The notes below the pieces were generated by a model. It saw nothing but the letters and a program-made list of their open reading frames with translations, was not told where the DNA came from and ran no database searches. Below, in pieces: positions 8,898-36,510 of a DNA stretch of 64,000 nt (position 1 is the first letter of the stretch; each line of letters begins with the position of its first letter). Location of the stretch: assembly GCA_043806035.1 (NCBI GenBank), contig JAZDHK010000001.1, positions 70,138 through 134,137 on the forward strand, in the 5' to 3' direction. The translations under genes were made by a program, and so were the position numbers. Origin of the DNA: an archaeon (GTDB lineage: Archaea > Nanobdellota > Nanobdellia > Woesearchaeales > UBA9642).

Positions 8898-9317
8898 ATG
8901 CAGCCGTACGAGTTTTTCGACCACACAGCAGACACGCTGTTCAAGGCGCACGGCAAGAATCTCGAGGAAGCGTTCGCCAACGCAGCACGAGCACTCACCT
9001 CACTCATGGTGGATCCCACACAGGTCAAGGAAGTCGAACGCAGAACGATCAACGTGCAAGGCTACGACCTTAAAGCACTGCTCTACAATTTTCTCGAGCA
9101 CTTCCTGATACTTGTCGACGCGGAAGGATTCATCATGCACGATCTTGAACATGTGGCCATCAAGCGCGGCAAGACTTTCGAACTGATCGCCTCAGTGACC
9201 GGTGATACTGTACGTAACTACGCTCCTGAAATGCATATCAAAGCCATAACATACAACGACATGCATATTGATGAGAACGAACAACAGGCAACCGTCCAGG
9301 TCGTTGTGGATTTGTAA
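8898..9317 (+). CDS. Archease
   Basis: YEFFDHTAD N-terminus, IKAITY, C-terminal VVVDL; adjacent to rtcB. Confidence 0.95.
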   Translation: MQPYEFFDHTADTLFKAHGKNLEEAFANAARALTSLMVDPTQVKEVERRTINVQGYDLKALLYNFLEHFLILVDAEGFIMHDLEHVAIKRGKTFELIASVTGDTVRNYAPEMHIKAITYNDMHIDENEQQATVQVVVDL

Positions 9318-9333
9318 TGCTCTGTGTGAGAAC

Positions 9334-12174
9334 ATGACCGACACAAACAGAATCAACTCCTACACGGTAGAATTGCCGCAGCACGACAAGATGCACGTCC
9401 CAGGCATAGTCTTTGCCAGCCCCATCCTTTTTGAGAAAATCCAGCAGGACAAGACTCTGGAACAGGTGCGGAACGTCGCCTGTCTGCCGGGCATCATCAA
9501 GTGGAGCATCGCCATGCCCGATGCCCATCAAGGCTATGGCTTTCCCATCGGTGGCGTGGCCGCGTTTGATTATGACACAGGCATCATTTCTCCAGGAGGT
9601 GTCGGATATGATATTAATTGTCTTCTTCCAGGAACCAACGTCTTGTGCGAACTTGGATACACTACACCCATAGAGCAGATAGGGAACGCATTGCCTGTCG
9701 AAATCACCTCGAACGGTTTCGGGCTTGCATTTGTCCACAGCGGCATCTGTGTGCGCACACTGGGTGCAGAAGCTGCAAAACCTGTCGCTGCGTTCATGAA
9801 AAAGAAATCGGACAGACGCGTTTTTGAAGTGAAGACCAGAACTGGATTGCAGCTTGCGTGCTCGGAAGACCACCCTATTTTCACCTCGCAGGGCATGATT
9901 GAAGCAGGACTGCTTGTTCCTGGAACAAACGTCGCAGTGTCTTATTTTGAGGGCATTCCCTATCAAAAAAGCGAGTGGAAAGACGAGACGGATATGGGAA
10001 TTGTGGCGAAAGTTTTCGGCTACATGCTCGGTGATGGCAGCCTCACAAGATGGCGGAACAAGTATTGCATCCGTGTTTATGGCAAAGAAACGGACATGGC
10101 ACGAATGCAGAAGGATCTTGCCAGAATAGGCATCAACTCACGCTACACAAAGATATCGCGCAATCATCGCATAACAACACAATATGGCGAGAAGACGTTC
10201 AGAGGAACCACTACTGAGCTCAGGATCTACTCCAAGAAATTTGCTGAACGGCTGCTCACATTAGGATTTCCTTTGGGAAACAAGACAGATAAACCATACA
10301 GGATTCCTGCCTGGGTTGTGGATGCTCCATTGTGGATTGTACGACTTTTCCTGGCAGGCTTTTTCGGAGCAGAATTGAGCTCGCCTTCAACACATAGCAA
10401 GACAGGGTTCTATGCACCAATACTGAGCCAGAACAAAAGTGCGCGACTTGAGGAGGTGGGTAGAGAGTTCTTGATAGATATCATGCAGCTTCTCGAGAGA
10501 TTCGGAGTGAAGGTGACCACCATTGCAAGCAGACAGGAGCATCCGAACAAACAAGGAAAGGTGATTCGGCTACGCCTTGAACTTGGCGCAGAAGAGGAGA
10601 ACCTGCTCGCTCTATGGCGCAAGATAGGATTTGAGTACAATGCGGAGCGTAGCTTATGCGCAGAGATTGCCTGCAAGTACATACTGCAGAAAAAACGACT
10701 GCAGTCAACTCGGGCAATGATCTCGTTTCGTGTGCGGGAACTCAAAAAGCAGGGCTTGCGGTTGGCCGAGGTGCAACGGCTTTTGGTGCGGCAAGGCGTG
10801 GCGAACGCAAGATTCATTGAGCGACAGTATTATGAGTGTGCTGGTCAGAGAATAACCCTCGATTTCCCATCGTTTGCAGCATTCGCAAAGGAGCAAGCAG
10901 AACGTTATGCCGTTGCAGGAACGCTCTTTGATGTCATTGAGTCTGTAAACATCATGAACTATGAGGGAGATGTCTACGACATTACCGTGGACACGACGCA
11001 TAATTTCTTTGCCAACGGCTTTGTGGTGTCCAACTGCGGCGTTCGTCTGCTCAGCACGCCTTTCACAACAAAAGACCTCGAGGGGAAAAAGCAGCAATTG
11101 CTCGATCGGCTCTTCAACTATGTGCCTCCTGGCGTGGGCAGAGACAGTCACGTCAAACTCACCAAAGAAGACCTAAAAGAAGTGCTCAATACGGGCATCA
11201 CGTGGTGCATCGCGCACGGCTACGCGACGAAAGAAGACGCGCAGCGTATCGAAGAACAGGGCAGCATGAGTTCTGCCAATGCGGAAATGGTGTCTGACAC
11301 GGCATTGTCGCGAGGCATCAAGCAATTGGGGACGCTCGGTAGCGGCAACCACTTCCTCGAACTGCAGCTCGTCGACAAAATACTGGACAAGAACACGGCC
11401 AATGCTTTCGGTATACGTCATGAAGGACAAGTCGTCATCATGATTCACTGCGGCTCACGAGGCCTGGGGCATCAGGTGTGCAGTGACTACCTCAAAAAAA
11501 TGGAACAAGAATACGGGACGAGCCACCTGCCCGACAGGGAATTGACGAATGCACCATTCCATTCCGTGCTGGGCCAGCAGTACTACAAGGCCATGTGCGC
11601 AGCAATGAATTTTGCGTTCTGCAACCGGCAGCTCATCACGCATTTCGTCAGAAAGGCTTGCAAGGATGTCCTCGGCAGCGATGAAAACATTGACATCGTG
11701 TATGATGTCTGCCACAACATCGCCAAAGTCGAACAACATCTCATCGACGGCGTGCAGAGAAAAGTCATCGTCCACCGCAAGGGCGCGACGAGAAGCTTCG
11801 GTCCAGGCAGGGAGGAAATTCCTGCTGTGTATCGTGCTCTCGGCCAGCCTATCCTGATCCCTGGCAGCATGGGGACGGCAAGCTACGTCCTTGTCGGGAC
11901 GGCAAAGGCAGAGGCATTGAGTTTTGGCAGCACGGCGCACGGTGCAGGCAGGGTCGCATCACGTACGTACGCACGCGCCACCGTTACTGGCGAAGAAGTG
12001 ACGAGAGAGCTTGCCGCGAAAGGCATACTCATCAAAGGGGCGTCGAAGAAAGGCATCGCGGAAGAAGCCCCTGCATTCTATAAGGATGTCGATGAAGTCG
12101 TCCGAGTCAGTCATGAGGCAGGCATTGGCAATATCGTTGCACGATTGATCCCTGTTGGTGTCGTGAAAGGGTAG
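9334..12174 (+). CDS. rtcB: RtcB tRNA-splicing ligase containing an intein
   Basis: MPDAHQGYGFPIGG, GYDIN/CGVR, GTLGSGNHFLE, HCGSRG, HRKGAT, PGSMG, HGAGR and final KG motifs. Confidence 0.95.
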   Translation: MTDTNRINSYTVELPQHDKMHVPGIVFASPILFEKIQQDKTLEQVRNVACLPGIIKWSIAMPDAHQGYGFPIGGVAAFDYDTGIISPGGVGYDINCLLPGTNVLCELGYTTPIEQIGNALPVEITSNGFGLAFVHSGICVRTLGAEAAKPVAAFMKKKSDRRVFEVKTRTGLQLACSEDHPIFTSQGMIEAGLLVPGTNVAVSYFEGIPYQKSEWKDETDMGIVAKVFGYMLGDGSLTRWRNKYCIRVYGKETDMARMQKDLARIGINSRYTKISRNHRITTQYGEKTFRGTTTELRIYSKKFAERLLTLGFPLGNKTDKPYRIPAWVVDAPLWIVRLFLAGFFGAELSSPSTHSKTGFYAPILSQNKSARLEEVGREFLIDIMQLLERFGVKVTTIASRQEHPNKQGKVIRLRLELGAEEENLLALWRKIGFEYNAERSLCAEIACKYILQKKRLQSTRAMISFRVRELKKQGLRLAEVQRLLVRQGVANARFIERQYYECAGQRITLDFPSFAAFAKEQAERYAVAGTLFDVIESVNIMNYEGDVYDITVDTTHNFFANGFVVSNCGVRLLSTPFTTKDLEGKKQQLLDRLFNYVPPGVGRDSHVKLTKEDLKEVLNTGITWCIAHGYATKEDAQRIEEQGSMSSANAEMVSDTALSRGIKQLGTLGSGNHFLELQLVDKILDKNTANAFGIRHEGQVVIMIHCGSRGLGHQVCSDYLKKMEQEYGTSHLPDRELTNAPFHSVLGQQYYKAMCAAMNFAFCNRQLITHFVRKACKDVLGSDENIDIVYDVCHNIAKVEQHLIDGVQRKVIVHRKGATRSFGPGREEIPAVYRALGQPILIPGSMGTASYVLVGTAKAEALSFGSTAHGAGRVASRTYARATVTGEEVTRELAAKGILIKGASKKGIAEEAPAFYKDVDEVVRVSHEAGIGNIVARLIPVGVVKG
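9619..11034 (+). mobile_element. Intein (472 aa) with LAGLIDADG-type homing endonuclease in rtcB
   Basis: Starts CLLPGT, block B CSEDHPI, endonuclease blocks FGYMLGDGS and FLAGFFGAE, ends HNFFANGFVVSN followed by extein Cys. Confidence 0.92.
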
Positions 12175-18987: not shown

Positions 18988-19118
18988 ACATCTCACCTCT
19001 GACACGTTGTGTCTGATGAAGTGGCCGTATTGGATTATATATTGCTATTCTACATAAACTATATAGTCAACAAAAAATTTATATATGACTGGTGTTGGAC
19101 AAAGCCAAGAGGTGTAAC

Positions 19119-20054
19119 GTGAACCGTAGACGCATTCAACTCATAGCCGGCACAACATACACGCTGTCCTTGCCGAAAGAATGGGTGAGACGCAACAAGC
19201 TCAAGGAGCAAGATGAGATTCTCATCGACGAGCGTGGTGACGGAACGCTCGTGCTCTTGCCGCACAGCAAGGAGAAGAGAACAGGAACAGATATCACGTT
19301 CCAAATCGATGATTTCCTGGATAGCATAGAGCAAGTCCTGTTCAGTTTCTACCATCTTGGCTTCGAAACAATCACACTCTGGTCAAAAAAAGAGATGCCC
19401 AAAGCAACACGTGCACTTATCCGAAAGTCCATAACCTACATGAGCGGAACGGAAATTGTCCACGAAGACGAGAAGAAAATCATTATCAAGATTCTCCTTG
19501 ATAAAAATCGCATCGATTTGACGCAAGTGCTCTATCGAATGGGACTCATCCTGCAGAACAGCGCAGCGCAACTTATTGGAGAGATTGCTATTGCCGACAT
19601 CAGGATTGGCGAGCAGGAAATCGATAGACTCTATCATCTGAACGCCAAAGTCCTCAGCCTTGCGCTTCAGGACAATACACTGCTGAGCACGGCGCGCATC
19701 CAGCATCTCGGGCTCATCCTTCTCTACAGCCTCATCAACAAGAAGCTGGAGAATATCGGTGATGTAATCAGTAGGCTTGCAGAATATCTTCACGACCACA
19801 AACTGCATCTTGAACAAAAAAAGGACGTGCAGTTTATAATGGCAGAATTGGACAGGTCACTCAAGCACGTACATAGTCCATTCCTCATGATGAGCAAGGA
19901 TGTTATTTTGGGATTGAAAGAAAAGCTGCCGGAGTGCAAAGACACAACAATCCGATACCATCTCTCGACGCTGCTAAGATATGTCATTGATGTCCAGGAA
20001 GAGATGGTCAGCGTCAGTTTCCACCAAAAGCTTATTCATGAAAAGATCATTTGA
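19119..20054 (+). CDS. phoU: Archaeal AbrB-PhoU phosphate uptake regulator
   Basis: RRIQLIAGTTYTLSLPKEWV AbrB domain; EIDRLY and LENIGD PhoU motifs; divergent from pstS. Confidence 0.85.
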   Translation: MNRRRIQLIAGTTYTLSLPKEWVRRNKLKEQDEILIDERGDGTLVLLPHSKEKRTGTDITFQIDDFLDSIEQVLFSFYHLGFETITLWSKKEMPKATRALIRKSITYMSGTEIVHEDEKKIIIKILLDKNRIDLTQVLYRMGLILQNSAAQLIGEIAIADIRIGEQEIDRLYHLNAKVLSLALQDNTLLSTARIQHLGLILLYSLINKKLENIGDVISRLAEYLHDHKLHLEQKKDVQFIMAELDRSLKHVHSPFLMMSKDVILGLKEKLPECKDTTIRYHLSTLLRYVIDVQEEMVSVSFHQKLIHEKII

Positions 20055-20062
20055 TGCCAAAA

Positions 20063-20080
20063 AGTTACTTTTTAGTGGTG
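20063..20080. promoter_or_regulatory. Recurring 18-bp palindrome upstream of the Rhs-core gene promoter
   Basis: AGTTACT-TTTT-AGTGGTG, 14 bp before TTTATA. Confidence 0.55.
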
Positions 20081-20140
20081 AAAACAAAAACCTTTTTATA
20101 GCTGCAGTGCATATCCTTCCTTTGCGGGGGAAGTGATGGA

Positions 20141-22294
20141 GTGAGAAACTCTACAAGAAACGTGCTGCTGTCATTTATTCTAGGTATGCTGCTTCTCTCC
20201 ACACTCGTCCTTGCGGCGAAAGAAAAAACCACACCTTCCAAGCAAGATCTTGATGTATCACTTCAAGAAAAAAACATCATCGCTGAACTCCCTACTGATA
20301 TCGTCGCGCCCACGATTAATTGCAGCAACATAACCAACAATCCTGCTGCCAATGAGACGACAAACACGACCAACTGCACTGCACTCGCTCCTGACACCTC
20401 AGAAAACAATACCGCCTTGCCCGATCCAGAATGGGAAATGACTGTAGACGATGATGCGACTGCTCCTGCAGCAAGCACAGAATCAGTTGCAGACATCGCT
20501 CTTGCTGTTGAAGAACTTCCTGAAGAGAACAGCACTCCAGAACCAACGCTCTCTGATGCCATTCTTCCAGAACCTGCACTGTTAACTGTTCCTGAAGAAA
20601 CAATCCTGGCTGAGAACACATCAGAGAATATGACCGAGGCCACGACGGAGAATATAACGGAGGATACAGTGCAAGAACCCGCGATTATCATGAGTGTGCC
20701 GCATCCTCTCTCTCTGCAAGGAGAGCGCCAAGAACTCGAGATTGTCTTCACGTTCGCTAATGTGCTCAACAGAACCGATACCTTCATGTCCGGACCGTAC
20801 ACCATTCCGGGCGATGCCGTGCAGAGGAATATAGGGCCCGTGCCGCTACCCTTAGCAAAAGAAAATCCTGCAATCGAAGAGTCTGCAGCAACTGATTTGA
20901 AGGCGGGTGCAACATCCGAACCACAGGCAACTGCACAACAAGTTGATATGCGTGCACGTCGCAACATAGGCCCCAGGACAATCATGCTCAGCACGTACGA
21001 CGTCCAGCGCGCACTGCCAGAACAGCCAGAAACCTTCACCAGATATCTCGTCAACATCACCTGTGCCCCTGACGTGTGCAGCTTCAGCGTCCCGGTGAGC
21101 GAGAACGGCATCTTCAAAGTCCTAGCATACGATGCGCAAGGCATGCTCCTTCTCGAGGACTCCTTCTCAGTCGAGATAGGACTGCAACGTACAAAACAAT
21201 ATCTTGCCTACGGCAACAACCGCATTATCGCAGAAGACAATCAGGGCACAGTCCAGTATCATCACCAGGACAATCTCGGCAGCACCGTGCTCATCACCAA
21301 TGCTTCAGGAGAAATGGTTGCCGAGTTCAGCTACGGCCCGTTCGGCGAGCCGCTCGTCGACCCTGCGCAATTCGCGTATACGGAGAAGGAATATGACGCT
21401 TCAGGACTCTTCTATTATGGTGCTCGCTACTACGATGCGGACATTGGCAGGTTCACGACGGCGGATACGTTCAAGGGAAGGACGACAGAGCCAGCCAGCC
21501 TCAATAGGTATGTCTACGTGCAGAATAATCCGCTTGTGCTCTCGGATCCTACCGGGCATGAAGGTGAGCATACGACGCAACAGCCGGTAAGCACGCGTGT
21601 TGATACGTCAGTTGATTATGCGCGGATGCAGCGACTGGCAGAGAAGCAGCTCAAGAAGCTGCAGCAACAGGCGTATGAGAATGCACTGGCACTGGCGCAG
21701 CAGACGCCGACAGGAGTGAGATTCGTCCCCAATGAAGAGGGATTGGTACAGGAGACTATTATTGAGGATGCCATTGCAGCGTTTGCCACCGGAGGAGGAT
21801 CCGTGGCTGGAAAGGGTATACTGGGTGCCAGCATCAAATCGACGGGGCGGGCAGGACTGTCTAAGACAATCTATGAAAAAGGACCTCTCCTGGCGAAATA
21901 TGGCAGAGGGGGCTTCAAAGTGCAAGCCACGACGAGGAGTGGGTTCGAAACGGCCCTTACCTTGGGCAATGACGTCTCTCTTGGTTTATCCCAACGGATT
22001 TCTATTCCTCTCTCTTCCACGAAGAGTTTGGAACTACGGGAGAGCGTCAGCGTACCAGTCTGGTCCTCATCGACAAATAGGCCTAGTGGAACGTACTACA
22101 CGCTGAAGTCGGACATTGCTATTGTGCCGGGCTTGTCTCTTGAGCAGTATGCACAGGTTACGCAAGAACTGCAGCAGGCGCAACAACAACAGTTCATCAA
22201 GGAAATGGACGCTCGCGTGCAACAATACAAATGGGCAGCTCCGTCGACAGGGGGGTACAACCCACCCGCACCTGTTCCGCGTTGGCACTTGTGA
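20141..22294 (+). CDS. Secreted protein: acidic stalk, Rhs-associated core with DPxG, and C-terminal payload domain
   Basis: Signal peptide; Glu/Pro/Thr-rich region with many N-x-S/T sequons; YHHQDNLGS, YGPFGE, YYGARYYDADIGRF, NNPLVLSDPTG. Confidence 0.9.
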   Translation: MRNSTRNVLLSFILGMLLLSTLVLAAKEKTTPSKQDLDVSLQEKNIIAELPTDIVAPTINCSNITNNPAANETTNTTNCTALAPDTSENNTALPDPEWEMTVDDDATAPAASTESVADIALAVEELPEENSTPEPTLSDAILPEPALLTVPEETILAENTSENMTEATTENITEDTVQEPAIIMSVPHPLSLQGERQELEIVFTFANVLNRTDTFMSGPYTIPGDAVQRNIGPVPLPLAKENPAIEESAATDLKAGATSEPQATAQQVDMRARRNIGPRTIMLSTYDVQRALPEQPETFTRYLVNITCAPDVCSFSVPVSENGIFKVLAYDAQGMLLLEDSFSVEIGLQRTKQYLAYGNNRIIAEDNQGTVQYHHQDNLGSTVLITNASGEMVAEFSYGPFGEPLVDPAQFAYTEKEYDASGLFYYGARYYDADIGRFTTADTFKGRTTEPASLNRYVYVQNNPLVLSDPTGHEGEHTTQQPVSTRVDTSVDYARMQRLAEKQLKKLQQQAYENALALAQQTPTGVRFVPNEEGLVQETIIEDAIAAFATGGGSVAGKGILGASIKSTGRAGLSKTIYEKGPLLAKYGRGGFKVQATTRSGFETALTLGNDVSLGLSQRISIPLSSTKSLELRESVSVPVWSSSTNRPSGTYYTLKSDIAIVPGLSLEQYAQVTQELQQAQQQQFIKEMDARVQQYKWAAPSTGGYNPPAPVPRWHL

Positions 22295-22382
22295 TAGCAG
22301 TTTACTTGTAGACAGCAATCGTTCAAGCGGAGTCTACCGTCTGTGTTGGCAGGTAACTTTATGATATAGAATTTTATAGAAT

Positions 22383-23276
22383 TTATTTGTAGAACTTGTC
22401 TACCCTGCTTTCTAAGCCAAACTGTCCTAGCTCGTTGATCTGACTGATGACGTCGAGCGTCGGCCGATGCGGCGTCTTTGCTCGTTCCATATCGTCCAAG
22501 AAGTAGGAAAGCGTATTCCTGAGCATATCGGCACCTGTTGTGTCATAGAAGTTCAGTCCTGCGACAGCGACGTTCAAATCCGCTAGGTATTGCGGGATAC
22601 TCTCGTATGGATTGGAGAGTTGCTTCTTTTCTCTCGACCAGAGGTCGAGGAATCGCTGGTTGCCTGCAAACAAGTGATCAATGCTCGTCTGGGATGGATT
22701 CGGATAGAGTGGGAGGTGGTTCTGCTCGGCGAGTGATTGCACGTACGGCAGCCAGCGTTGGTTGAGTTCTTGGTCATAGACATCGCTTTCATGTGGGTTG
22801 GCGAGCCATGCCTTGAACGCGCTGTCGGAAAGCGAGATGATAGGTTTTCTCTGTTCTTGTGTTATCCATTGTTCTAGCGTTTGATTGAGATAGTTTTCGT
22901 TGCGAGATTCGATGTCATATCTGAATTCCTTCGTGCTGAGCAACAGTTCCTTAAGCTGGCTAAGATAGTGTGTGCTGGCGTCTGCTCCTTTGATGGCGTT
23001 CGAGGCGCTAGCGTATCGTGCAAGCAACTGTTCGATGTGGTTGTTCTCCTGTACCGATCGCGCATAACCCGTCGTGTCTGGCCTGATTGTCGTGTCAAGC
23101 GTACTCGTATCCTGCCGCGTATGACCTGTCATGTCCGATGTGATTTCTGTTTCTTGCTTTGCAGATGTGTGTGGAGTGGCAGAGCAACTCGAATAGAAGA
23201 GAGGAATTAACGCAGCAAGTATCGTTGGCTTGAGTAGTATTTTGCCAAGCAATCGTAACCCATCTGATGCGGTCAT
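22383..23276 (-). CDS. Hypothetical exported or lipoprotein-like protein (candidate immunity or accessory factor)
   Basis: Hydrophobic N-terminus ending SSC; own BRE/TATA; lies inside the Rhs locus. Confidence 0.65.
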   Translation of the reverse strand: MTASDGLRLLGKILLKPTILAALIPLFYSSCSATPHTSAKQETEITSDMTGHTRQDTSTLDTTIRPDTTGYARSVQENNHIEQLLARYASASNAIKGADASTHYLSQLKELLLSTKEFRYDIESRNENYLNQTLEQWITQEQRKPIISLSDSAFKAWLANPHESDVYDQELNQRWLPYVQSLAEQNHLPLYPNPSQTSIDHLFAGNQRFLDLWSREKKQLSNPYESIPQYLADLNVAVAGLNFYDTTGADMLRNTLSYFLDDMERAKTPHRPTLDVISQINELGQFGLESRVDKFYK

Positions 23277-23318
23277 GATGTGGAGGATGCCTTTCTGATT
23301 TATAAATGTTTCTATCAT

Positions 23319-23336
23319 TACTACTCAAAAATGGTT
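23319..23336. promoter_or_regulatory. Recurring 18-bp palindrome
   Basis: TACTACT-CAAA-AATGGTT, 12 bp upstream of minus-strand TTTATA. Confidence 0.55.
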
Positions 23337-23506
23337 AATTATTTTATTGCTGCAAACGGCATGCAAAAACAAGATCTTGCCAATTTCTCGACGATAAAAT
23401 GAACCTGAAGAAGATGCACATCACAAAACGGAACAAGAATACAGATTCGTTTTGCAAATATTTAAATACGTAGCAGCTATTTTCTCCTCGGGGGAAGGTG
23501 TAGGCA

Positions 23507-26500
23507 GTGACGAACAAAACGAACATTGCAATAACCTATATGCTCACTATATTGATTCTTATTCTCCTGCCCTCCGCTCTCGCTGAAGGCGAATATCATC
23601 AAACTATCAACTTGCAGCAACAGTTCGGCGACCAGAGCAAAGCAGCCACCGCATATGGTGTGGTAAGCGATGATGTCGACCTCTTCACGGGCGACGTGCG
23701 CTTCAGCATGCCAATCATCTCCTTGCCAGGCAGGAATGGCATGGACCTCGGTTTCAGCGTGGCGTATAGCTCGAACGTCGATACCACCAGATCGAACGCC
23801 GAATCCCCGACGGGTGTCCTTGGCCTGGGATGGAGTCTTCCCCTCTCCACTATCACCGTAGACACCAAGGGAACAGGCTCCAACACGGATGATACGTTCT
23901 ACTGGAACGGCCAAGAATTGATTCCCTTCCCCAATCAAGGCGCGTATCCGACCACGTTCTACACATCGAGAGACTACACGTACAAGGTCATCACTGCAGT
24001 CTGGTCTGAACCCAAGATCGACCACTGGATCATCACGAACGAGGACGGCAGCAAGGAATATTATGGCAGCACGGACAACTCACGCTGGATAGCACTCGGC
24101 GAAGACAACGTGATCGGCGTCGGCGACACGAACTACTACACGGGCTGGTATCTCGACAAGCGCGAGGACACGTTCGGCAATAGGATAACCTACGACTACC
24201 GGAAGTATGAGACAGAATATCCCTCCCATCCAAATGTGGCGAACGCGAATGGCTACGCCCTGTACGGCAGCAGCCAGCGCTACACCAAGGCGATGTACCT
24301 CTATCACATCAATGACAGCGTCGGAAGAACAGTCACGTTTACCTACGCGCTCAAGAACCCGACAGAGTACTATGACCCCGACTCGACGTATACGACAATC
24401 GGCGATACCGTTGTCCACCACCGCATGAAGCGCTTCGAGCGACTGTATCTCGACTATATAGATGTACAGACGACCGATGGCTCTCTGCTCAACAGGTATG
24501 ATTTTGGCTATAACGAGGACGTCAACGGACTTGCACAACATATCGCTCAAGACACACAGCTCGAGAAACGTCTGCTCACCTCGGTCACCATCTATGATGA
24601 TAGCCTCAGCACCCATCTCAATCCGACAAAGTTCCAGTATGTCACGGACATGACATTCTTCCGCGTCGGCGTGTTCGGCAAGATACAGAAAGTCCTGTAT
24701 CCGAGCGGCGGCATGGTCGAGTACACATATGACAGAAATGACATGAACTATGACATGCGCCAGTATATGATAAGTTATGGTACGCAGATGACGTACGTCG
24801 GCAACGACTTCATCGTGAACAAGGACGTGGATGCGATGAGCATCCGCATCAAAGACTTCAAGGGGGACACGTGGAAGGATGCACCTCTCGATACGTGGTT
24901 CGACTTCGGATCGTATCCCTATACGAACCAACCCCAGCAATATCGGACGGAAGTCATGGATATTTCAACAGGTAAGGATTATGTTGCAGTCGCGTACGGA
25001 AACACCCTCCGCAACCAGCCAGCTTCTGACAACAGACAGTACGATCCGAAGAGAGACAAGCTCAAGATCATCCAACGCGGGCTCGATGGCGTGTGGCGAG
25101 TTGCTCTGTCCAATACATTTACCGTTGATAACACACCGACAGGAACGGGCGCCATCCAGGTCTTTCCGCTCACGGACGAAGTGCTCGTGCTCTCAGGTTC
25201 TGATTCCTCGAAGACGCTCAAGGTCTTTAGGAGAAACAGCCAACTTTCCTGGTCACAGGCGCAGCAGATCACTGGACTGCCGTCGGACATCAAGAGTATC
25301 CAGGTCAGAGACTCATATATTTTCATCATAGGAGCACCATTCCCAGGATCCGATTACAACGTCTACTTCTACCAGAAAGACGAATCGGGAACGTGGAACC
25401 AGCTCAGTTGCGGATCTACAGGACCAGTCTATCAGTACAATCATTTCAATTATGGCACTGGCGGATACACTGCAGGATGTTATTTCCAGAATCCACAAAG
25501 CCAAGGCTTTGAAGATTTCTCCGTTGTGGCCAACGACAATTATGTCGCAGTCTTGGTGTCGCATCGCATCCAGTCAATGACAGGACTGGCAGCACGTCTC
25601 TATAGATTCCCTGCAGGATGGACGACTCATGCGAATCTTGTCGTCTGGAGGAGAGTAGGAAACGAATGGCAGGTGCAAGTCAATCCGACCAGCGAAAGCC
25701 AGCTGCGGCAGCCGCTCTCTGGAAGGTCAGACTATGCATCGGCAGTCACATTCCAAGGCTACTTCATGGCGGGCGATGACACCCAACTCTTCATCGGCAA
25801 CAAGATCATGTACAACGCCGCCCAGCGATTGCTGCGATACACGCCGCAATGCAATGCGAACGGACAATGCACAGGATGGACATCTGCTACCATCCCTCTC
25901 AGTTCCAACACCTGCGATGGAGGGACGGGCGACTGCGCATACCTCAATGATTTGACAGTGACTCCTGACGCTGTCGGTCTTGTCACGGAAGAACGCTCAG
26001 GCCTCGGCAATGCCACCATCGGCCTACAGATTTTCGGGCGGGATGAGTATGGCACGGGCGGCTGGGATTTCATCAACGGGCCGATTGACGGCTATCTTAT
26101 CTGGAACAACGTCCCCTCGCCTGATCCAGCGAACAATCCCGTGCAGATTGACATGCTCACCCTGCAGAGCACGAACTTACGCATTGGCGATGGCATCTTG
26201 ACCGTCAAGGCATATAGTCCGATTAATCTTGGATCTGGCCGGACGTACGAGATCATGCTCAAAGAATTCATAGACTATGATTCGTATCCTTCCTTCTGGG
26301 CACGGCCAAGCTGGGAACTCGGAGATTATAAACAAGAAGCGACCGTGACGAGTCAAAATATTGATTATCTCTACTTCTGGCATACCAAGGACACGAACCA
26401 GATGAGCAACAACATAGCATCGTTCCAGCACTATTTTGGACCAGGTGCGGATAATCCCCAATTTGGGAGGGGAGCGTTGAGCATGGTCAAATACGGGCAA

Positions 26501-28387
26501 ATACGAGGACTGATGTTCCACTATCCCGTCACGAAGAAAACAGTCAGAGACGATTACGACAATGTCATCACGACCACGTACACGTACAAGAACGGCAAGT
26601 TCGACAAGAGTCTAGGTAGCGCCCAGTACAACTATGTCGAAACCAGCGTGCAGGATGTGCTCAATCCAGACTTCAATGCAGGAAAGACCGTCTACAGATT
26701 TTACAATGGCCTCTCTCCAGGAGATGACGCCTGCGATGTCGACTGCCCAGATATGTCTTCCTTCACGTATCCTGATGAGATGAACAGCTTGCTCTACTAT
26801 CAGGCGATGTATGACAGCGACAACCAGCTCGTCCAGGAAACCAACACCACGTGGGAAGTGACGTCGAAACAGCTGAAATCGTTCGAGAAGCACCAGACGC
26901 AAACCACGACGATACGGGATCATATTGCCTCGAGCACGATTATCACGTACAACAGCCAGAACGGCATGGTCGAATCTACGCGTAATGAGAATGGCGACAA
27001 CACGGTGAAGACGTGCACGCTCTACGCGTTCCAGCACGATCCTCTACATGCAGACATCCTTGCCGCGAACATGCTGGGCTTGGTGAGCTACTCCTTCATG
27101 GGCAACCAATGGATGACCTGCGACTCGCCAGAGAATAACAAACCCAATGTCGCGAGCATGACCAAGATGACCTACCGTCATATCGACGACGAGGACTATG
27201 AACCTATCGTTCCTAGTGCTGTGCTCACATGGGCAGACCTTAACCACGATGGCAATGTTACCGGCAGCGATTTCATCACCTCGCAGATCATGCATGCGTT
27301 CGATAGCTTTGGTAACGTGCTGGACACCAGCGACGCCCTCGGCCAGCATACTTACATTTATTATGGTGACGGTGACAGCAGTGCCAGGCGCAGAAGCAAC
27401 AATCCCTCCTACAACAATTACCGGCACGCGTATCCCACTGCCGTCAAGAACGCACTCAATCACTGGGTGGAGGCGACGTACGATGTGCGCGGGAACATCC
27501 TGCAGCTGTTTGAGACGACACGTCAGGAAAATGTCCTGCAGCAGAACGTCTACGATGGCTTCAGCAGGCTCGTCAAGATCATCAAGCCAGGAGATACGCT
27601 AGATAATCCGACCATGCAGTATACGTATCACGATTGGCAGCAAGGAACAGGTCTCGAGAGCCTCCAATGGGTTCGTGTTTCGACAAAGATTGATGGCTCT
27701 ACACACGCGACCGCCACCACCTATTCCGACGGCCTGGGCAGGGAAGTTGCTGTTGTGCAAGACAACGCGTGGGAAGGCAATCAGGTTATCACGACGAAGA
27801 CGTACAACAGCATGGGTCAGGAGTTCAGCGCAACACTCCCCTCCATCATCGGCCAGACCATCCCTCCAACAGTAACGTATCTGTTCTACACGTCTGATCC
27901 TCTCCAGCGAGTGAGCATGCAACGTGTGCTCGGCTATGACGAAACGAGCTATAGCAGCCACGACATCACCATCCCCGGAGGGAGGATAATGTTCGGCACC
28001 GACAGCTGCGTCGGTTCTGTCGATCCCATCTACGGCGTGGAGGCGACGGGCAAGCTCAAGGAATACTTCTGTGACGACGTCTTCCTCAAGAGTGAGATTC
28101 ACGAGTGTGGTGACGGCCTGATGTGCGCTGAAGGGCAGTGCGTGAGCAGCATGCAGTGTACGGACAGCGACGGGACGAACTACTACACGCAAGGAGAGGT
28201 GCGGAGCGGCTTCGCCGGCCACGTCCCCAACGTCTATACGGACATCTGCAACTCACGTGGAGAGCTCGTGGAATACCGGTGCGACGGCCAGAACGTGGCG
28301 ACGACAGTAGTGAACTGCCACGAATATCCCTGCACTCACGCCGGCGAGCTTGATTTCTGCTATTGCGGAGGTGGACGATGCATATAA
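23507..28387 (+). CDS. Large secreted SpvB/TcB-like YD-repeat protein with Cys-rich C-terminus
   Basis: Signal peptide (SALA-EG); VDLFTG...LPGRNG...GLGWSL N-terminal motif; YD repeats (FDSFGNV, YDVRGNI, YDGFSRL, DGLGRE); CTDSDG Cys-rich repeats; no DPxG core. Confidence 0.85.
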   Translation: MTNKTNIAITYMLTILILILLPSALAEGEYHQTINLQQQFGDQSKAATAYGVVSDDVDLFTGDVRFSMPIISLPGRNGMDLGFSVAYSSNVDTTRSNAESPTGVLGLGWSLPLSTITVDTKGTGSNTDDTFYWNGQELIPFPNQGAYPTTFYTSRDYTYKVITAVWSEPKIDHWIITNEDGSKEYYGSTDNSRWIALGEDNVIGVGDTNYYTGWYLDKREDTFGNRITYDYRKYETEYPSHPNVANANGYALYGSSQRYTKAMYLYHINDSVGRTVTFTYALKNPTEYYDPDSTYTTIGDTVVHHRMKRFERLYLDYIDVQTTDGSLLNRYDFGYNEDVNGLAQHIAQDTQLEKRLLTSVTIYDDSLSTHLNPTKFQYVTDMTFFRVGVFGKIQKVLYPSGGMVEYTYDRNDMNYDMRQYMISYGTQMTYVGNDFIVNKDVDAMSIRIKDFKGDTWKDAPLDTWFDFGSYPYTNQPQQYRTEVMDISTGKDYVAVAYGNTLRNQPASDNRQYDPKRDKLKIIQRGLDGVWRVALSNTFTVDNTPTGTGAIQVFPLTDEVLVLSGSDSSKTLKVFRRNSQLSWSQAQQITGLPSDIKSIQVRDSYIFIIGAPFPGSDYNVYFYQKDESGTWNQLSCGSTGPVYQYNHFNYGTGGYTAGCYFQNPQSQGFEDFSVVANDNYVAVLVSHRIQSMTGLAARLYRFPAGWTTHANLVVWRRVGNEWQVQVNPTSESQLRQPLSGRSDYASAVTFQGYFMAGDDTQLFIGNKIMYNAAQRLLRYTPQCNANGQCTGWTSATIPLSSNTCDGGTGDCAYLNDLTVTPDAVGLVTEERSGLGNATIGLQIFGRDEYGTGGWDFINGPIDGYLIWNNVPSPDPANNPVQIDMLTLQSTNLRIGDGILTVKAYSPINLGSGRTYEIMLKEFIDYDSYPSFWARPSWELGDYKQEATVTSQNIDYLYFWHTKDTNQMSNNIASFQHYFGPGADNPQFGRGALSMVKYGQIRGLMFHYPVTKKTVRDDYDNVITTTYTYKNGKFDKSLGSAQYNYVETSVQDVLNPDFNAGKTVYRFYNGLSPGDDACDVDCPDMSSFTYPDEMNSLLYYQAMYDSDNQLVQETNTTWEVTSKQLKSFEKHQTQTTTIRDHIASSTIITYNSQNGMVESTRNENGDNTVKTCTLYAFQHDPLHADILAANMLGLVSYSFMGNQWMTCDSPENNKPNVASMTKMTYRHIDDEDYEPIVPSAVLTWADLNHDGNVTGSDFITSQIMHAFDSFGNVLDTSDALGQHTYIYYGDGDSSARRRSNNPSYNNYRHAYPTAVKNALNHWVEATYDVRGNILQLFETTRQENVLQQNVYDGFSRLVKIIKPGDTLDNPTMQYTYHDWQQGTGLESLQWVRVSTKIDGSTHATATTYSDGLGREVAVVQDNAWEGNQVITTKTYNSMGQEFSATLPSIIGQTIPPTVTYLFYTSDPLQRVSMQRVLGYDETSYSSHDITIPGGRIMFGTDSCVGSVDPIYGVEATGKLKEYFCDDVFLKSEIHECGDGLMCAEGQCVSSMQCTDSDGTNYYTQGEVRSGFAGHVPNVYTDICNSRGELVEYRCDGQNVATTVVNCHEYPCTHAGELDFCYCGGGRCI

Positions 28388-30792
28388 CGCTCCGCCTGCA
28401 GCTGCGCGTGCTACTCTTCCTGACAGTGCTCTTGCTGTTCTCATTCCAGGTGATGGCCACGGAAGTACATTGCAACAATCTCGACCGCGGTATGAACCGT
28501 TTTGGCTTCGCTATCGATGGCGTGCCCTTTGAGGAGCAGTTCTACGCAAAAGAAGGAGACTACTGCTCTGGCGATGTACTGTATGAACATCGTTGCAGTG
28601 AGGAGAGCGGTACACAGGATATCTATCCTCCCGGATGGGGTCCGGGCGGAACACCCGTGTATGATGATTATTGGATAGAGATTGATTGCAGCATGTTCGA
28701 TACGGATCAAGTACAGTTCCATTGTGTTCAGTATGCGTTTGAAAAAATGCAAATCGGCACGGGAGCAATAAGAGAGGCTATTGCCGCTCGTTGCGAACCG
28801 AATGTTGCCGCCTGCATCGATACAGAAGTCGGTCGAGATCCGACATTCCCAGGAACGGTGACCGGCTACGCTCCCGCCACCACGGCATACAGTCAAGGAG
28901 TGACCACAGGCACGCTGTTTACGAACCAGCAAGATTTTTGCGGCGGCGTCCAGAACGATAACTTGATGGAGCTCTCGTGTGACGATGAGTATATCAGCCC
29001 CGTCCCTAGTGCGTGGAGAGTGGTCAGTGGACAGGATGTTCCCCCAACGGGCATGGTCAATGCGTCACATCATTATAGCGAGGCACAGCAAGGCTACGTT
29101 TTGGAGCCGGACAGCTGCCTTGGCATATCTGACTTTTATGGCGCGTGCCAGGACGGTGCCTGCACGTACTTCGGCGACCGCTGCGTCGACATGGATTCTG
29201 GCCACGTGTACGGGACGAAAGCGACGGCGATGGGCATTGTCATCTCCCCTGCTCAGCAAATGGAGGATGAAGAACCTCTCGATGATTGGACAGCAGCGAC
29301 TGACACGTTCGTCTACTACCACTACAAAGGATCAATCGACAATACGTACATGACCGAAGTAACTGACGAGAACAATCATACCACTACCTCGTATACAGAT
29401 AGGGCGGGCAACCTGGTGAAAGTGAGGGATGCCCTGGGCAACGTGTGGAGCTACCAGTACGATCTCATGAACAGGCTCATTCGCATACTCCCTCCAGAAA
29501 ATGCGGCGCAGACAACGTATTCCTACGAGCCAAGAGGGCTGCTCTGGCGCGAGCACGATCCAGAAAAAGAAGTGTTCAACGCCGACGAGGGCTACACGGA
29601 TACAGACGCGTACGAATATGATGCCAACGGCAGACTGATCACGTACACGACCAAGCTGGGAGTCAAGCAATTCTCCTATGATACGCTCAACCGCATAGTA
29701 CAGGTCATGTTCGACCGGGACAATCAAGGGTATGGCGATCCCAACGGTCCAGACCCGAACCTAGTCGTGCTGCGCTACTATTACGATGGTGATGACACGG
29801 GCAAGCTCTGTCTTAACAACAACCAGTACAGCGTGGGCAAGCTCTGCGCAGTCATCCGTTACGCATATCACAATACCTCTCCCGCAATCGACATTGTCCA
29901 GTACGCAAGATCCTTCGGCTATGATCCGCGAGGAAGAATCATCAGCGAATACATAACCATCAGAAACCCGGACAACAGCTACTCTACGCACAACATTTCG
30001 TATACGTACAATGGGATCGACAAAGTAATTGAAGAAGTTGTCGATGGTCAGGAGACCTACACGTATGCATACAACGACCGCGGCCTGCTCGACACGGTGC
30101 AGCTTGATGGTTCGTACCTTGCAGCGTTCACGTATACCCCGAGTGGAGCGGTCAGAGACATCTGGTATGGCAACGAAATTGTCACGAACTACACGTACAC
30201 GCCGAGACAATGGCTGCGTACCATCGATATCGCCGGCTCTCAGAACCTGTTCAGTAGATACTATGTCTATGATAAAGTGGGCAACATGCTCACCATGAAG
30301 GCGGGGCCAGATCAGCATGACCCGCTCCTGGCAACCTACACGTATGACCCGCTCTACCGCCTCACAGAGGTCATCGATCATGAGTATTATGGCAACAGCT
30401 ATGTCTTCACCTATGATGCGCTGGGCAATCGCCTTACGGAGAATCTCGTCGGGCAGTACACGCGGACATTCACCTACGCCACTGCAGAGAACAATCAACT
30501 CATTTCACTACAGCAAGGCCTCCATCTTGATTCCCTGACAGAATTTGCGTATGATGCAGCAGGTTCTCTCATTACCATGACCGGGGGAAATATGCCAACC
30601 CAGTACACGTATGATCCGTATGATAACATGCTCATCGCTGCTGACTTGCAGCAGGATGGAAGTGCGGATATGACCTTCACATATGACGATCAAGGAAGAA
30701 GGATAACAAAGCAAGAATCCGATGGCTACAGCACGTACCTGTATGATGCGTTCGGCAATACCGTTCTTGTGGACACGCTCCGCTGGTTATAG
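28378..30792 (+). CDS. Secreted Cys-rich and YD-repeat (Rhs middle segment) protein
   Basis: GGAGGTGG SD; signal peptide; Cys-rich N-terminal third; YDLMNRL, YDANGRL, YDKVGNM, YDPLYRL, YDALGNR, YDDQGRR; ends YDAFGN without a core. Confidence 0.85.
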   Translation: MHITLRLQLRVLLFLTVLLLFSFQVMATEVHCNNLDRGMNRFGFAIDGVPFEEQFYAKEGDYCSGDVLYEHRCSEESGTQDIYPPGWGPGGTPVYDDYWIEIDCSMFDTDQVQFHCVQYAFEKMQIGTGAIREAIAARCEPNVAACIDTEVGRDPTFPGTVTGYAPATTAYSQGVTTGTLFTNQQDFCGGVQNDNLMELSCDDEYISPVPSAWRVVSGQDVPPTGMVNASHHYSEAQQGYVLEPDSCLGISDFYGACQDGACTYFGDRCVDMDSGHVYGTKATAMGIVISPAQQMEDEEPLDDWTAATDTFVYYHYKGSIDNTYMTEVTDENNHTTTSYTDRAGNLVKVRDALGNVWSYQYDLMNRLIRILPPENAAQTTYSYEPRGLLWREHDPEKEVFNADEGYTDTDAYEYDANGRLITYTTKLGVKQFSYDTLNRIVQVMFDRDNQGYGDPNGPDPNLVVLRYYYDGDDTGKLCLNNNQYSVGKLCAVIRYAYHNTSPAIDIVQYARSFGYDPRGRIISEYITIRNPDNSYSTHNISYTYNGIDKVIEEVVDGQETYTYAYNDRGLLDTVQLDGSYLAAFTYTPSGAVRDIWYGNEIVTNYTYTPRQWLRTIDIAGSQNLFSRYYVYDKVGNMLTMKAGPDQHDPLLATYTYDPLYRLTEVIDHEYYGNSYVFTYDALGNRLTENLVGQYTRTFTYATAENNQLISLQQGLHLDSLTEFAYDAAGSLITMTGGNMPTQYTYDPYDNMLIAADLQQDGSADMTFTYDDQGRRITKQESDGYSTYLYDAFGNTVLVDTLRWL

Positions 30793-30904
30793 AGCTGCAG
30801 CACCCATTTTAGACCTCTCTTGTCGCCGATGGTGGTTGTATTCCTGCAGTAGTTCTTGATTTTTTCGAGCGTGATGGCATGTGCGTATCTTATCGTGTTC
30901 AGCG

Positions 30905-31597
30905 TCATTGGTTACAAAGAGTCTTTGGTGCAGAAACAGATGATTGGTAGCTTTCGCCGATGATGAGTACAGGCGTTCTTGTTTTTGTCTGCGTAAAGAG
31001 GTCCTGCATGGCATCGTAGGGGATGGCAATGCATCCGTACGTCCAATCCTTGCAGGTTGCGCACACTTTTCCCACAAGGTCGTGCGGGATGGTGTGGATA
31101 CCTATCTCTCCGCCAAGACCAGTATACCAATCGTACGAACCTTCTACGAGTTTCTTCTTGATGCGATCTGCTTCCTTCTTGGTGATGACGCCTTCTTGCA
31201 AGCCACGTTCTGCATCTTCAGCGTTGGGGTAGCTGATGCCGAGGAACCAACTGTATTCACTCTTGTCGTTTTTTGTGCAAATAAAATATTCTCCTTCTGG
31301 CGTGCGCAGATCCCCTTGCCGTTCCTTGCACCCCTCATTGATGCCAAAGACCGCAGGGACGGGATATCCTTCAACGAGTGCTCCTTGTTTATAGAAGTAC
31401 AGTTCACGTCCTTGCTTGTCGATGACGATGGCAGTTCTGTTCTTATTTTTTTCCTTGAAGTCTTCGCGGAGCTTGTCTGCAAGATTTTCAGTTGTGACTG
31501 TTGTTTCTTGGTTGTCTGACAGAGCAGTTGGTGGCATTGTCTCTATTTCTGCGCATAGTGCTACAGTTGCCAGAAGTATGCTCAGCATTCTTTTCAT
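30905..31597 (-). CDS. Secreted YkuD-family L,D-transpeptidase-like protein (DpaA/YafK-like)
   Basis: Signal peptide; KERQGDLRTPEG, ISYPN, GGEIGIH...WTYGCIA. Confidence 0.85.
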   Translation of the reverse strand: MKRMLSILLATVALCAEIETMPPTALSDNQETTVTTENLADKLREDFKEKNKNRTAIVIDKQGRELYFYKQGALVEGYPVPAVFGINEGCKERQGDLRTPEGEYFICTKNDKSEYSWFLGISYPNAEDAERGLQEGVITKKEADRIKKKLVEGSYDWYTGLGGEIGIHTIPHDLVGKVCATCKDWTYGCIAIPYDAMQDLFTQTKTRTPVLIIGESYQSSVSAPKTLCNQ

Positions 31598-34602: not shown

Positions 34603-36510
34603 ATGCAAGCCATCATCACGAGCGGAGGGACGATTGCGCGTATCGACGACGTGCGCCATCTTGCCAATTTCAGCTCGGGAACGACAGGAGCGCTCATTGC
34701 AGAAGCATTCCTTGCCCAAAACTGGGATGTGCACTACGTGCATGCGCGGCAGGCAAAACGGCCATTCAGGCATAGGCTCGTTCTCAATCCAGACCTGCCA
34801 CTCGATGAGGAACTGGACAGACTAGCAACAACAAAAGCGGTTCTGGTGCGCTACCAGGACAGACTGCACGAGCACGTTTTTGATACGGTCGAAGACTACA
34901 TTGCACAGCTCAAGGAACTCGTTCCTGCAGCGGACGCCGTCATCCTCGCCGCAGCAGTCTCCGACTACAGCCCAGAAACCGTACAGGGCAAGATAAACTC
35001 CGATGCTGACGAGCTTTTGCTGCGCTTGCACAAAAACCAGAAGGTCATCTCGTTCATCAAAGGATGGAATGCGCGCATTTTCCAAGTGGGATTCAAGCTG
35101 ACGAGCAACGCTGGCATCGACACGCTCATCGACACTGCATACAGGCACGGCATCGCCAATCATTCCAACCTCACCGTCGCCAATGACCTTGTTGGTGATG
35201 ATTTTGGGAAAAGAACAACACTTATCATCACACCGGAGAAAGGACTCTATCCCGTCTCTTCTCACGAACTTCCCGCAACACTTACGCAACTTGTCATGCG
35301 AAGAATGTCTAACCAGCACTACACGACCATCCAGACCGAGCAGAAACCAACAATCCCTGACACATTCAAGGACATAACACAAGAGCTCTACCTGCATAAT
35401 TATTTTGAACCCTATTATTACCAAGCCCCTTTCCAGTTCGGCTTTGTCGCCCAACGATATGCAGATGGATTCTTGATAACGGCACGGGCGAGCGACAAGA
35501 AAACCATGCCATCTGAGGACGTGACGTACGTTCGCAACGTTGATCTGGTGAAGAGGCGAGTGGTCAGCAGCGTCGGAAAGAAGCCGAGCCTGAATGCGAA
35601 TGTTGCCGGCGCCATCTTCCAAAAAAGGCCAGACATACACCTGATCGTGCACGCCCATATCTTCCCTGGTCTCGAGAACAAGACGGCAACAGAGTATGCG
35701 CCGGGAACGCAGGAGGACGTGCTGGAAATTGTTCCACGGCTGCTCCACGAGAACGGCGTCGAGCTTCCTCGGCACGGCATCATCGTCCTCGGCAACGACG
35801 TACAGGACATCCTTGCGGAAGTCAAGACAGACAACGTCTACACCACCTTTCCTGCATGGTATGACCTGCTGTACAAGCGATTCTCCGACGACAAGTTCTT
35901 AGCGTACATCAAGAGCCATCTCTCTCCGCAAGCGAGCATCCTCGACCTCGCTGCAGGCACGGGACTGCTGGCAAAGCAGCTCTGGGAGCACGGGTATAGA
36001 AATCTCAGCCTGGCAGACAAGCAGCCTGCCATGCTCGAGCGAGCAAACATCCCCTGTGAGAAATGTATTGTCGACCTGCGCGACGTACACCTTCCTAAGA
36101 GATATGATGCCATCGTGGTTCGCCAAGCAATGAACTATGTCTTGGATGAGCAGCATCTTGTTTCGGCATGCAATGCCCTGTACAAACAGCTCAACGACAA
36201 CGGCGTGCTTATCTTCAATGCGCCAAACTATTATCCGAGAAAGGTTTATCCCGAACGGACACACACGTACGAGAGCGATGGCTATCAGATTACTATAACA
36301 GAAATGAACTATGTGCGGGGAAGAACGCTGACGCACACCCAACGCTGCACCCTGCTGGGAAAGACGGACGTGCAGAAGTTCTATGACTGCAACAGGTTCG
36401 GGCTGTTCACGAAGGACGAGTTCGTTTCTGCATTGCGCGGAGCAGGATTCTCTGTTGCTATCGATGAGACAAGCAAGTCGCTGCTGTTCGTGGCACGTGC
36501 CAAGCGTTGA
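34603..36510 (+). CDS. Fusion of CoaB-like ligase, class II aldolase-like domain and class I SAM methyltransferase
   Basis: ITSGGT...IDDVRHLANFSSG, AAAVSDY, VGFKL; KPSLN...HAH...RHG; ILDLAAGTG. Confidence 0.8.
   Translation: MQAIITSGGTIARIDDVRHLANFSSGTTGALIAEAFLAQNWDVHYVHARQAKRPFRHRLVLNPDLPLDEELDRLATTKAVLVRYQDRLHEHVFDTVEDYIAQLKELVPAADAVILAAAVSDYSPETVQGKINSDADELLLRLHKNQKVISFIKGWNARIFQVGFKLTSNAGIDTLIDTAYRHGIANHSNLTVANDLVGDDFGKRTTLIITPEKGLYPVSSHELPATLTQLVMRRMSNQHYTTIQTEQKPTIPDTFKDITQELYLHNYFEPYYYQAPFQFGFVAQRYADGFLITARASDKKTMPSEDVTYVRNVDLVKRRVVSSVGKKPSLNANVAGAIFQKRPDIHLIVHAHIFPGLENKTATEYAPGTQEDVLEIVPRLLHENGVELPRHGIIVLGNDVQDILAEVKTDNVYTTFPAWYDLLYKRFSDDKFLAYIKSHLSPQASILDLAAGTGLLAKQLWEHGYRNLSLADKQPAMLERANIPCEKCIVDLRDVHLPKRYDAIVVRQAMNYVLDEQHLVSACNALYKQLNDNGVLIFNAPNYYPRKVYPERTHTYESDGYQITITEMNYVRGRTLTHTQRCTLLGKTDVQKFYDCNRFGLFTKDEFVSALRGAGFSVAIDETSKSLLFVARAKR

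Follow-up and report, generated by a model that had tools for sequence, protein, structure and literature searches.

A 64,000-nucleotide stretch of archaeal DNA, termed the window (contig 1 of assembly GCA_043806035.1, Woesearchaeales, positions 70138–134137), carries three open reading frames (ORFs) on the plus strand that together probably encode one polymorphic toxin of the Rhs/Tc-BC type. Its YD-repeat shell, or cocoon, would be split over three exported chains that assemble outside the cell and accept exchangeable caps. The ORFs are C (P0001, 20141–22294), A (P0002, 23507–28387) and B (P0003, 28378–30792). An earlier note on this DNA had described all three; they are present as described, each with one N-terminal hydrophobic signal-like segment. 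The split is a design conserved across orders and not the result of a pseudogene or a misjoin. The window represents the rarer three-gene form of split Rhs/Tc-BC toxins, which are widespread in Nanoarchaeia.

Three chains collinear with one shell

The three chains match P0127, a single-chain homologue, in the correct order and without overlap. Residues 49–1193 of A fall on residues 30–1108, B 366–794 on 1857–2295 and C 373–473 on 2341–2442 (residue numbers of B count from a TTG at 28363, which gives 809 amino acids). On P0129, residue 791 of B corresponds to residue 2322 and residue 338 of C to residue 2337. The best yardstick is the B protein of G060, a genome of the same order and another family, where this part of the shell is unbroken. 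A 1231–1500 aligns with residues 142–417 of G060-B, and B 335–809 aligns with residues 416–836, end to end and with 33% identity. As A stops at residue 417 of this protein and B resumes at 416, the two chains are contiguous.

The other break was placed with a shell-end profile of 632 positions, made from the last ∼600 residues and the core of 20 full-length Rhs proteins. B covers profile positions 41–493 (to residue 798 of 809, so that its end lies at ∼493–504), and C covers positions 518–631 from residue 361, its start being at ∼518 or slightly earlier. A consensus of 40 Rhs proteins places the end of B (FTYDDQGRRITK...YLYDAFGN) and the start of C (YLAYGNNRIIAE...YHHQDNLGS) on adjacent hairpins. 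Alignment to full-length Rhs proteins, a check put forward in the earlier note, thus finds A, B and C collinear on P0127, G060-B and the shell-end profile. The closed cocoon of Rhs proteins comes from one polypeptide; here shell and core are spread over three ORFs. The whole host genome has a single Rhs core, that of P0001, and RHS repeats are found in B alone.

Contigs from a public sequencing run reach 29 of the 30 bins into which the region 20000–31000 was divided, at a depth of ∼3–6. No indels or joints are listed over this region, and the single difference is a G to A at 21367. One 1160-nucleotide contig crosses the A|B junction (28136–29295) unchanged. The misassembly raised as a concern in the earlier note is therefore not seen at the A|B junction, which is intact and free of indels in a run of low depth that probably stems from the source sample. 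The contigs of the run are short, and the support that they give reaches the A|B junction and not the linkage of C to A.

Subunit A

The A subunit comprises 1626 amino acids and displays a signal-like segment, an SpvB/TcB-like start, a middle region, an early YD shell and a Cys-rich tail. The SpvB-like N-terminal shell domain, typical of Tc toxins, spans amino acids 61–263 (23687–24295) and matches PF03534 with an expect value (E) of 1.3e-8 and 34.8 bits against a cut-off of 22. The start of A is 28–33% identical to the starts of G060-A, P0126 and bacterial Rhs proteins of 2600–2800 amino acids; the nearest relatives at this end are these single-chain bacterial proteins (26–33% identity). The TcdB middle domains and FG-GAP propeller of Tc toxins were not found in A: PF12256, PF12255 and FG-GAP have no match in P0002 at E ≤ 0.01 and none within amino acids 401–1000 at E ≤ 1, a segment that has no Pfam match. 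When P0002 alone was compared with solved structures, no match was found.

The early shell comprises amino acids 998–1500 (26498–28006), as defined by alignment to G060-A, G060-B and the A protein of G447, a 0.6 Mb genome of another order in the same class. Amino acids 998–1177 align to G060-A 1014–1184, and DUF6443 matches residues 1395–1449 weakly. The chain ends in a Cys-rich module (28007–28384) with 13 Cys in amino acids 1501–1625. This tail has weak matches of 36–40% in other proteins of the order.

Subunit B and the A|B junction

The better start of B is an ATG at 28378, which gives a protein of 804 amino acids. A Shine-Dalgarno-like motif, GGAGGTG (28368–28374), lies 4–10 nucleotides upstream of it, and the ORF overlaps the TAA of A by 10 nucleotides. 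The motif and the overlap give the junction the look of coupled translation and not of a frameshift.

The signal-like segment of B is followed by a Cys-rich N-terminal module (28471–29184) with 13 Cys in amino acids 37–274, and then by the YD shell. The earlier note had placed Cys-rich modules at the break point, and 13 Cys are indeed present both in the tail of A and in the head of B. Similarity between the two modules is limited to a short recurring C-x(12–15)-C motif; BLAST finds no significant similarity between them, nor between the head of B and the heads of G060-B and G447-B. Neither module has a Pfam match.

The shell of B spans amino acids 328–809 (29344–30789), occupies profile positions 41–493 and stops one hairpin short of the core. 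YD (RHS) repeats are clear in P0003 (RHS_repeat PF05593, E 4.8e-22; TIGR01643, E 6.7e-18), and the shell-end profile spans residues 328–798. The C-terminus of B is YLYDAFGN followed by 10 amino acids.

Subunit C

The C subunit comprises 717 amino acids: a signal-like segment, a stalk, a beta-rich region, the Rhs core and the payload. The signal-like segment is amino acids 1–28 (20141–20224), within which residues 5–28 form the sole hydrophobic 19-mer stretch of the protein; 20 other C subunits have hydrophobic N-terminal stretches that line up with it. An acidic Pro/Thr-rich stalk follows (amino acids 31–190, 20231–20710). With 10 N-x-S/T sequons and 20% D + E, it is the sequon-rich acidic stalk that had been described. 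Stalked C subunits like P0001 also occur in G104 (C45) and G343 (C16). The pre-core region, amino acids 191–360 (20711–21220), had been called immunoglobulin (Ig)-like. Neither the stalk nor this region has a Pfam match, and a sequence search with P0001 190–480 returns core matches only.

The Rhs-associated core comprises amino acids 361–473 (21221–21559). TIGR03696 (Rhs_assc_core) matches residues 398–473 with E 2.8e-18, and the core ends in NNPLVLSDPTG, which carries the DPTG cleavage-type motif. Against the solved structures of TccC3 and YenC2, residues 369–473 fall on the final ∼110 residues of the conserved part and run up to the cleavage site. Two aspartates stand in the alignment where TccC3 has KErD and ssDP. 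These are D419, conserved in at least 90% of 21 C subunits, and D442, which is invariant among them; both are presumably catalytic, as in Tc toxins. P0001 thus displays a core with a DPxG site and two aspartates, from which cleavage is predicted.

Beyond the core is a 244-amino-acid tail, the putative payload (amino acids 474–717, 21560–22291), an orphan sequence with no Pfam family. Among 1.84 billion representative proteins it has no relatives beyond itself and one 30-amino-acid stretch. In the Atlas it gave weak leads alone, with a feature score of 0.76 and a template modelling (TM) score of at most 0.35 to beta-barrel proteins.

The split in related loci

No A homologue was found in the 18 genomes of the same family that were searched. 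A metagenome scan for A-like loci found none, and a scan of genome contigs found only the G060 record. The G060 locus consists of four adjacent genes, C1, A, B and C2. C1 has a signal peptide, a Cys-rich module, a core and a tail, and C2 too has a signal peptide. B (836 amino acids) has a signal peptide, a Cys-rich module and the shell, and ends in YVYDMGGN plus 7 amino acids, the same B|C break as in the window; its A|B break is shifted, being ∼275 residues earlier. In G060 A (1229 amino acids) an in-frame signal-like segment without ATG, GTG or TTG lies upstream of the first GTG (L016 8734–8928), and this gene may use a non-standard start codon.

The locus in G447 displays both the A|B and the B|C break of the window. 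Its A protein (1244 amino acids) has a signal peptide, an SpvB match (E 1.4e-5) and DUF6443 near the end. B (835 amino acids) overlaps A by 4 nucleotides and has a signal peptide, 28 Cys and a shell at profile positions 76–485. P0002 1118–1449 aligns to G447-A 883–1204, and the shell of G447-B begins at about residue 333. An opposite-strand gene resembling inosine monophosphate (IMP) dehydrogenase and two signal peptide-bearing C genes, with a core from position 524, complete the locus. Cys-rich modules stand at the same place in G060-B and G447-B, and the module of G447-B matches the Pfam family Cu-binding_MopE.

A total of 21 related loci were compared. Sixteen were fetched for having core and repeat matches on one contig and are thus a chosen, non-random set; four were added later, and G060 completes the set. 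Both ends are readable in 20 of these and in the window, the shell end of L161 being cut by a contig end. On the shell-end profile the shell stops where the neighboring C starts in 19 of these 21 loci. Six (the window, G060, G137, G447, G545 and G104) have the break of the window, with shell ends at 485–501 and C starts at 497–524. The other 13 break ∼90 positions earlier, with shell ends at 388–450 and C starts at 411–426. The two exceptions are L063 (409 versus 497) and L061, which has a masked stretch. Recurrence of the breakpoints in other DPANN genomes, which the earlier note had suggested looking for, is thus found in G447, in G060 and more widely.

A hydrophobic N-terminus and conserved core residues are present in all 21 aligned C subunits; the C proteins of L061 and L063 have no hydrophobic N-terminus from the first start codon. 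In 15 of the 21 related loci the C gene precedes the shell gene; in five it follows it, and G060 has C genes on both sides. The order of genes in the window, which had been singled out as permuted, is therefore the usual one.

In a quick tree the two break classes form two shell clades, each with a support of 99 by the Shimodaira–Hasegawa-like approximate likelihood ratio test (SH-aLRT). The three-gene loci do not resolve as a group in this tree, and the A|B split may have occurred once or repeatedly. Class I shells of the order (for example in G094, L048 4890–11237) display TcdB_toxin_midN (E 1.2e-25) and FG-GAP repeats. They resemble TcB and are paired, in these archaea, with short core-toxin genes whose products are exported separately.

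Distribution, proposed payload exchange and candidate immunity genes

A 2012 survey describes polymorphic toxins as rare in archaea (PMC3482391). Within the order, 75 of the 401 genomes have the Rhs core and 65 have RHS repeats, the latter mostly in frames of 1500–2500 amino acids. Of 216 core matches, the 150 that were listed comprise 134 in frames of less than 700 amino acids, 10 in frames of 700–999 and six in frames of 1000 or more; most of these listed cores are thus in frames too short to hold a shell as well. Core and repeats occur together in 58 of the 401 genomes, the core only in 17, repeats only in seven and neither in 319, tallies that include the unpublished G330 and G199 and in which related genomes are not independent. 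An A-type start is present in 23 of the 401 genomes and mostly heads long shell ORFs, which indicates that A and B are fused elsewhere.

A scan of the phylum found Rhs cores in 47 of 301 genomes, and sister-order genomes of 0.6–0.7 Mb carry up to 15 matches. Three genomes of this size in the same class, G414, G503 and G545, have 11–15 core matches each, mostly in frames of 350–490 amino acids, which is a very high load. Many core-toxin genes in episymbiont genomes of 0.6–0.7 Mb represent a large investment in secreted toxins.

The earlier note had proposed that the core/payload subunit is exchangeable, and C paralogues within single genomes support this in that they diverge exactly at DPxG. 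In G060 the paralogues share 66% identity across the 228 residues that lead to DPxG, and beyond it they are unrelated. In G447 they are 75% identical over 219 residues (near-identical as far as the motif) and likewise unrelated beyond.

Small same-strand ORFs follow the C genes in most related loci. Behind class II C genes, lipoprotein-like ORFs of 215–343 amino acids are present in G060, G137, G104, G343 and the window, where the ORF is convergent. This ORF, P0124, encodes 311 amino acids on the minus strand (22383–23318) and has a lipoprotein-like start, with hydrophobic amino acids 23–45 and Cys45. P0124 has no Pfam match. Pairwise BLAST finds no similarity between it and the lipoprotein-like ORFs of G060 and G137, and in the loci of G104 and G343 no ORF resembles it at E ≤ 1e-3. 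P0124 is a candidate immunity protein, or might be a partner protein.

Relation to known systems

The locus resembles the TcB-TcC cocoon (TcdB2-TccC3, YenB-YenC2) in its multi-chain shell, SpvB-type start, DPxG core and putative hypervariable payload. It differs in having three chains where Tc has two, a signal-like segment on each, Cys-rich modules at the A|B break and an archaeal host. The break that precedes the core also differs. In the window only ∼115 residues stand between it and the cleavage site; TcC, in contrast, has ∼680 residues of shell. In addition, P0002 has no match to the TcdB mid-domain. A TcA partner was sought in the host genome with PF18276, the TcB-binding domain, without a match, and the control genomes gave none either.

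A second relative is WapA, an Rhs protein exported by Sec in Gram-positive bacteria. It shares the signal peptide, YD shell and core with the locus and, as is proposed for the locus, has a polymorphic toxin and an immunity neighbor and is used between cells without a type VI secretion system. WapA is one polypeptide, whereas in the locus shell and core-toxin are separate genes with their own signals.

The bacterial Rhs proteins of 2600–2800 amino acids, which carry DUF6443, are nearest to the start of A and are collinear with A + B + C. These proteins and the mosquito proteins SGS1 and SGS4 (8fjp, 9on3) are single chains with ∼400 extra middle residues relative to the locus. A profile of P0002 and its bacterial relatives matches the solved structures of SGS1 (E 3.4e-172) and SGS4 (E 1e-160). 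The bacterial proteins are close kin of the mosquito salivary gland surface protein genes.

The C genes also resemble bacterial orphan rhs core/toxin cassettes, which form core-plus-tail arrays with immunity genes and in which similarity likewise stops at DPxG. Bacterial orphans usually have neither a start nor an export signal and act by recombination into the main gene. The archaeal C modules, in contrast, are complete ORFs with a signal-like N-terminus and lie mostly upstream of the shell. A 328-amino-acid core-plus-tail ORF in G361 (L058 12201–13187) begins at the core (profile position 522), has no signal-like segment and is found downstream of a complete C gene; it resembles an orphan cassette of the bacterial style.

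In the literature searched, no description of split, signal-bearing core subunits was found; Makarova et al. 2019 (mBio, archaeal polymorphic toxins) lay outside that search and may bear on novelty.

Proposed mechanism

The following sequence of events is proposed. A would contribute the first turns of the shell together with the SpvB-like start and a large middle domain, and B the rest of the YD shell. C would supply the last hairpins, an aspartyl-protease core with its DPxG site, the 244-amino-acid payload and a stalk of glycosylated type. All three would leave the cell unfolded by way of their own Sec-type signals. Outside, A and B would meet edge to edge, aided by the disulfide-rich modules at their break, and C would close the open end by adding strands to the last strand of B. 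The core may then cut after DPTG and free the payload, in or at the cocoon, for use on neighboring cells. As C is a separate gene, one shell could take different payload subunits.

The current picture of Rhs and Tc cocoons is that one or two chains fold in the cytoplasm and enclose the payload as they do so. If the present proposal is correct, a YD cocoon whose pieces are all exported separately can still be closed and loaded once outside, by means of a detachable cap-and-payload subunit, and the locus would be a tractable system in which to rebuild cocoon loading in vitro. A broader and more speculative suggestion is that Nanoarchaeia (Woesearchaeales and sister orders) may export an open YD shell, made of a single piece or of two, that is capped outside by interchangeable core-payload subunits. 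Payload choice would then be made at the protein level in place of DNA recombination, encapsulation would follow translocation, and the disulfide-rich modules at the A|B break would serve as a clasp.

Alternative explanations

Several observations speak against an exported cocoon of three chains. The signal-like segments of A, B and C are assigned from hydrophobicity and alignment. The known B and C subunits of Tc toxins are produced in the cytoplasm and, as far as is known, must both come from one cell. The read check has low depth and a run that is probably from the source sample. P0124, on the opposite strand, separates C from A and B and places C outside any shared operon. As the two break classes are two clades, the complementarity in 19 of 21 loci perhaps represents only two ancestral splits and linked inheritance, and not 19 separate events. 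Finally, G156 (13 core genes, 92% complete), G414 (14 core genes, 99%) and G503 (11 core genes, 93%) have no RHS_repeat at E ≤ 0.01, and so proteins composed of a signal peptide, core and toxin can exist without a shell. Evidently such proteins can act alone in some lineages; alternatively, the shells of these genomes are unrecognizable or unassembled.

These shell-less genomes, with 11–14 such genes each and no detectable YD repeats, are the basis of the main rival explanation, in which C is an autonomous exported or surface-anchored toxin, the Rhs core is a self-cleaving release module, and A + B form a separate adhesin or an unloaded shell. The C genes of G156, which are scattered among housekeeping genes, are consistent with this, as are the long stalk that P0001 bears of its own and the opposite-strand genes that stand between A and C in the window and between B and C in G447. 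It is nonetheless considered unlikely, although a serious contender. Against it, A + B stop exactly one hairpin short of a core in a genome with no other core, and in 19 of 21 loci the core begins where the shell ends. RHS repeats are also found in 58 of the 75 core-positive genomes, and C adjoins the shell in all 21 related loci, though the loci were chosen for holding both, which makes this a biased count.

A less probable alternative is that uncleaved signal-anchors hold the three chains in the membrane, where they display a YD shell of teneurin type that serves mainly in host attachment and not in toxin delivery. DPANN archaea live attached to hosts, a sequon stalk is typical of archaeal surface proteins, and the core also matches teneurin YD shells. 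The conservation of the catalytic-type Asp residues and DPxG, tails that are hypervariable between paralogues, and small immunity-like ORFs after C genes in most related loci are, however, marks of polymorphic toxins and make this reading doubtful.

That the locus is an Rhs gene in decay or a product of misassembly, its breaks being frameshifts, stops or misjoins, is very improbable even for a metagenome-assembled genome of low depth (∼3–6), since every piece opens with its own signal-like segment, B has a Shine-Dalgarno-like motif and a start that overlaps the stop of A, G447 and G060 share the architecture, and the public-run contigs have no indel or joint. The preferred reading remains that of a split Rhs/Tc-BC-type toxin.

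Genome setting and neighboring genes

The host assembly is 1.5 Mb in 42 contigs and 93.7% complete, and the host order comprises more than 130 families of small genomes. Genes around the locus are archaeal and include RtcB with an intein, Orc1/Cdc6, the pst transporter and coenzyme A (CoA) genes.

Directly downstream of B, on the minus strand (30905–31597), is a gene for a protein with a signal-like N-terminus and a YkuD-type L,D-transpeptidase domain (PF03734, E 1.6e-13). A peptidoglycan-acting enzyme of this kind is unexpected for an archaeon without murein and might target bacterial neighbors. The remaining features are on the plus strand. The RtcB tRNA ligase (9268–12174) is split by an intein that contains a LAGLIDADG endonuclease domain. 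At 19092–20054, adjoining the pst phosphate transporter genes, is an ORF that joins a MazE/AbrB-type DNA-binding domain to a PhoU domain. A 635-amino-acid ORF at 34603–36510 displays an unusual fusion of DFP (CoaB/C-type), class II aldolase and methyltransferase domains.

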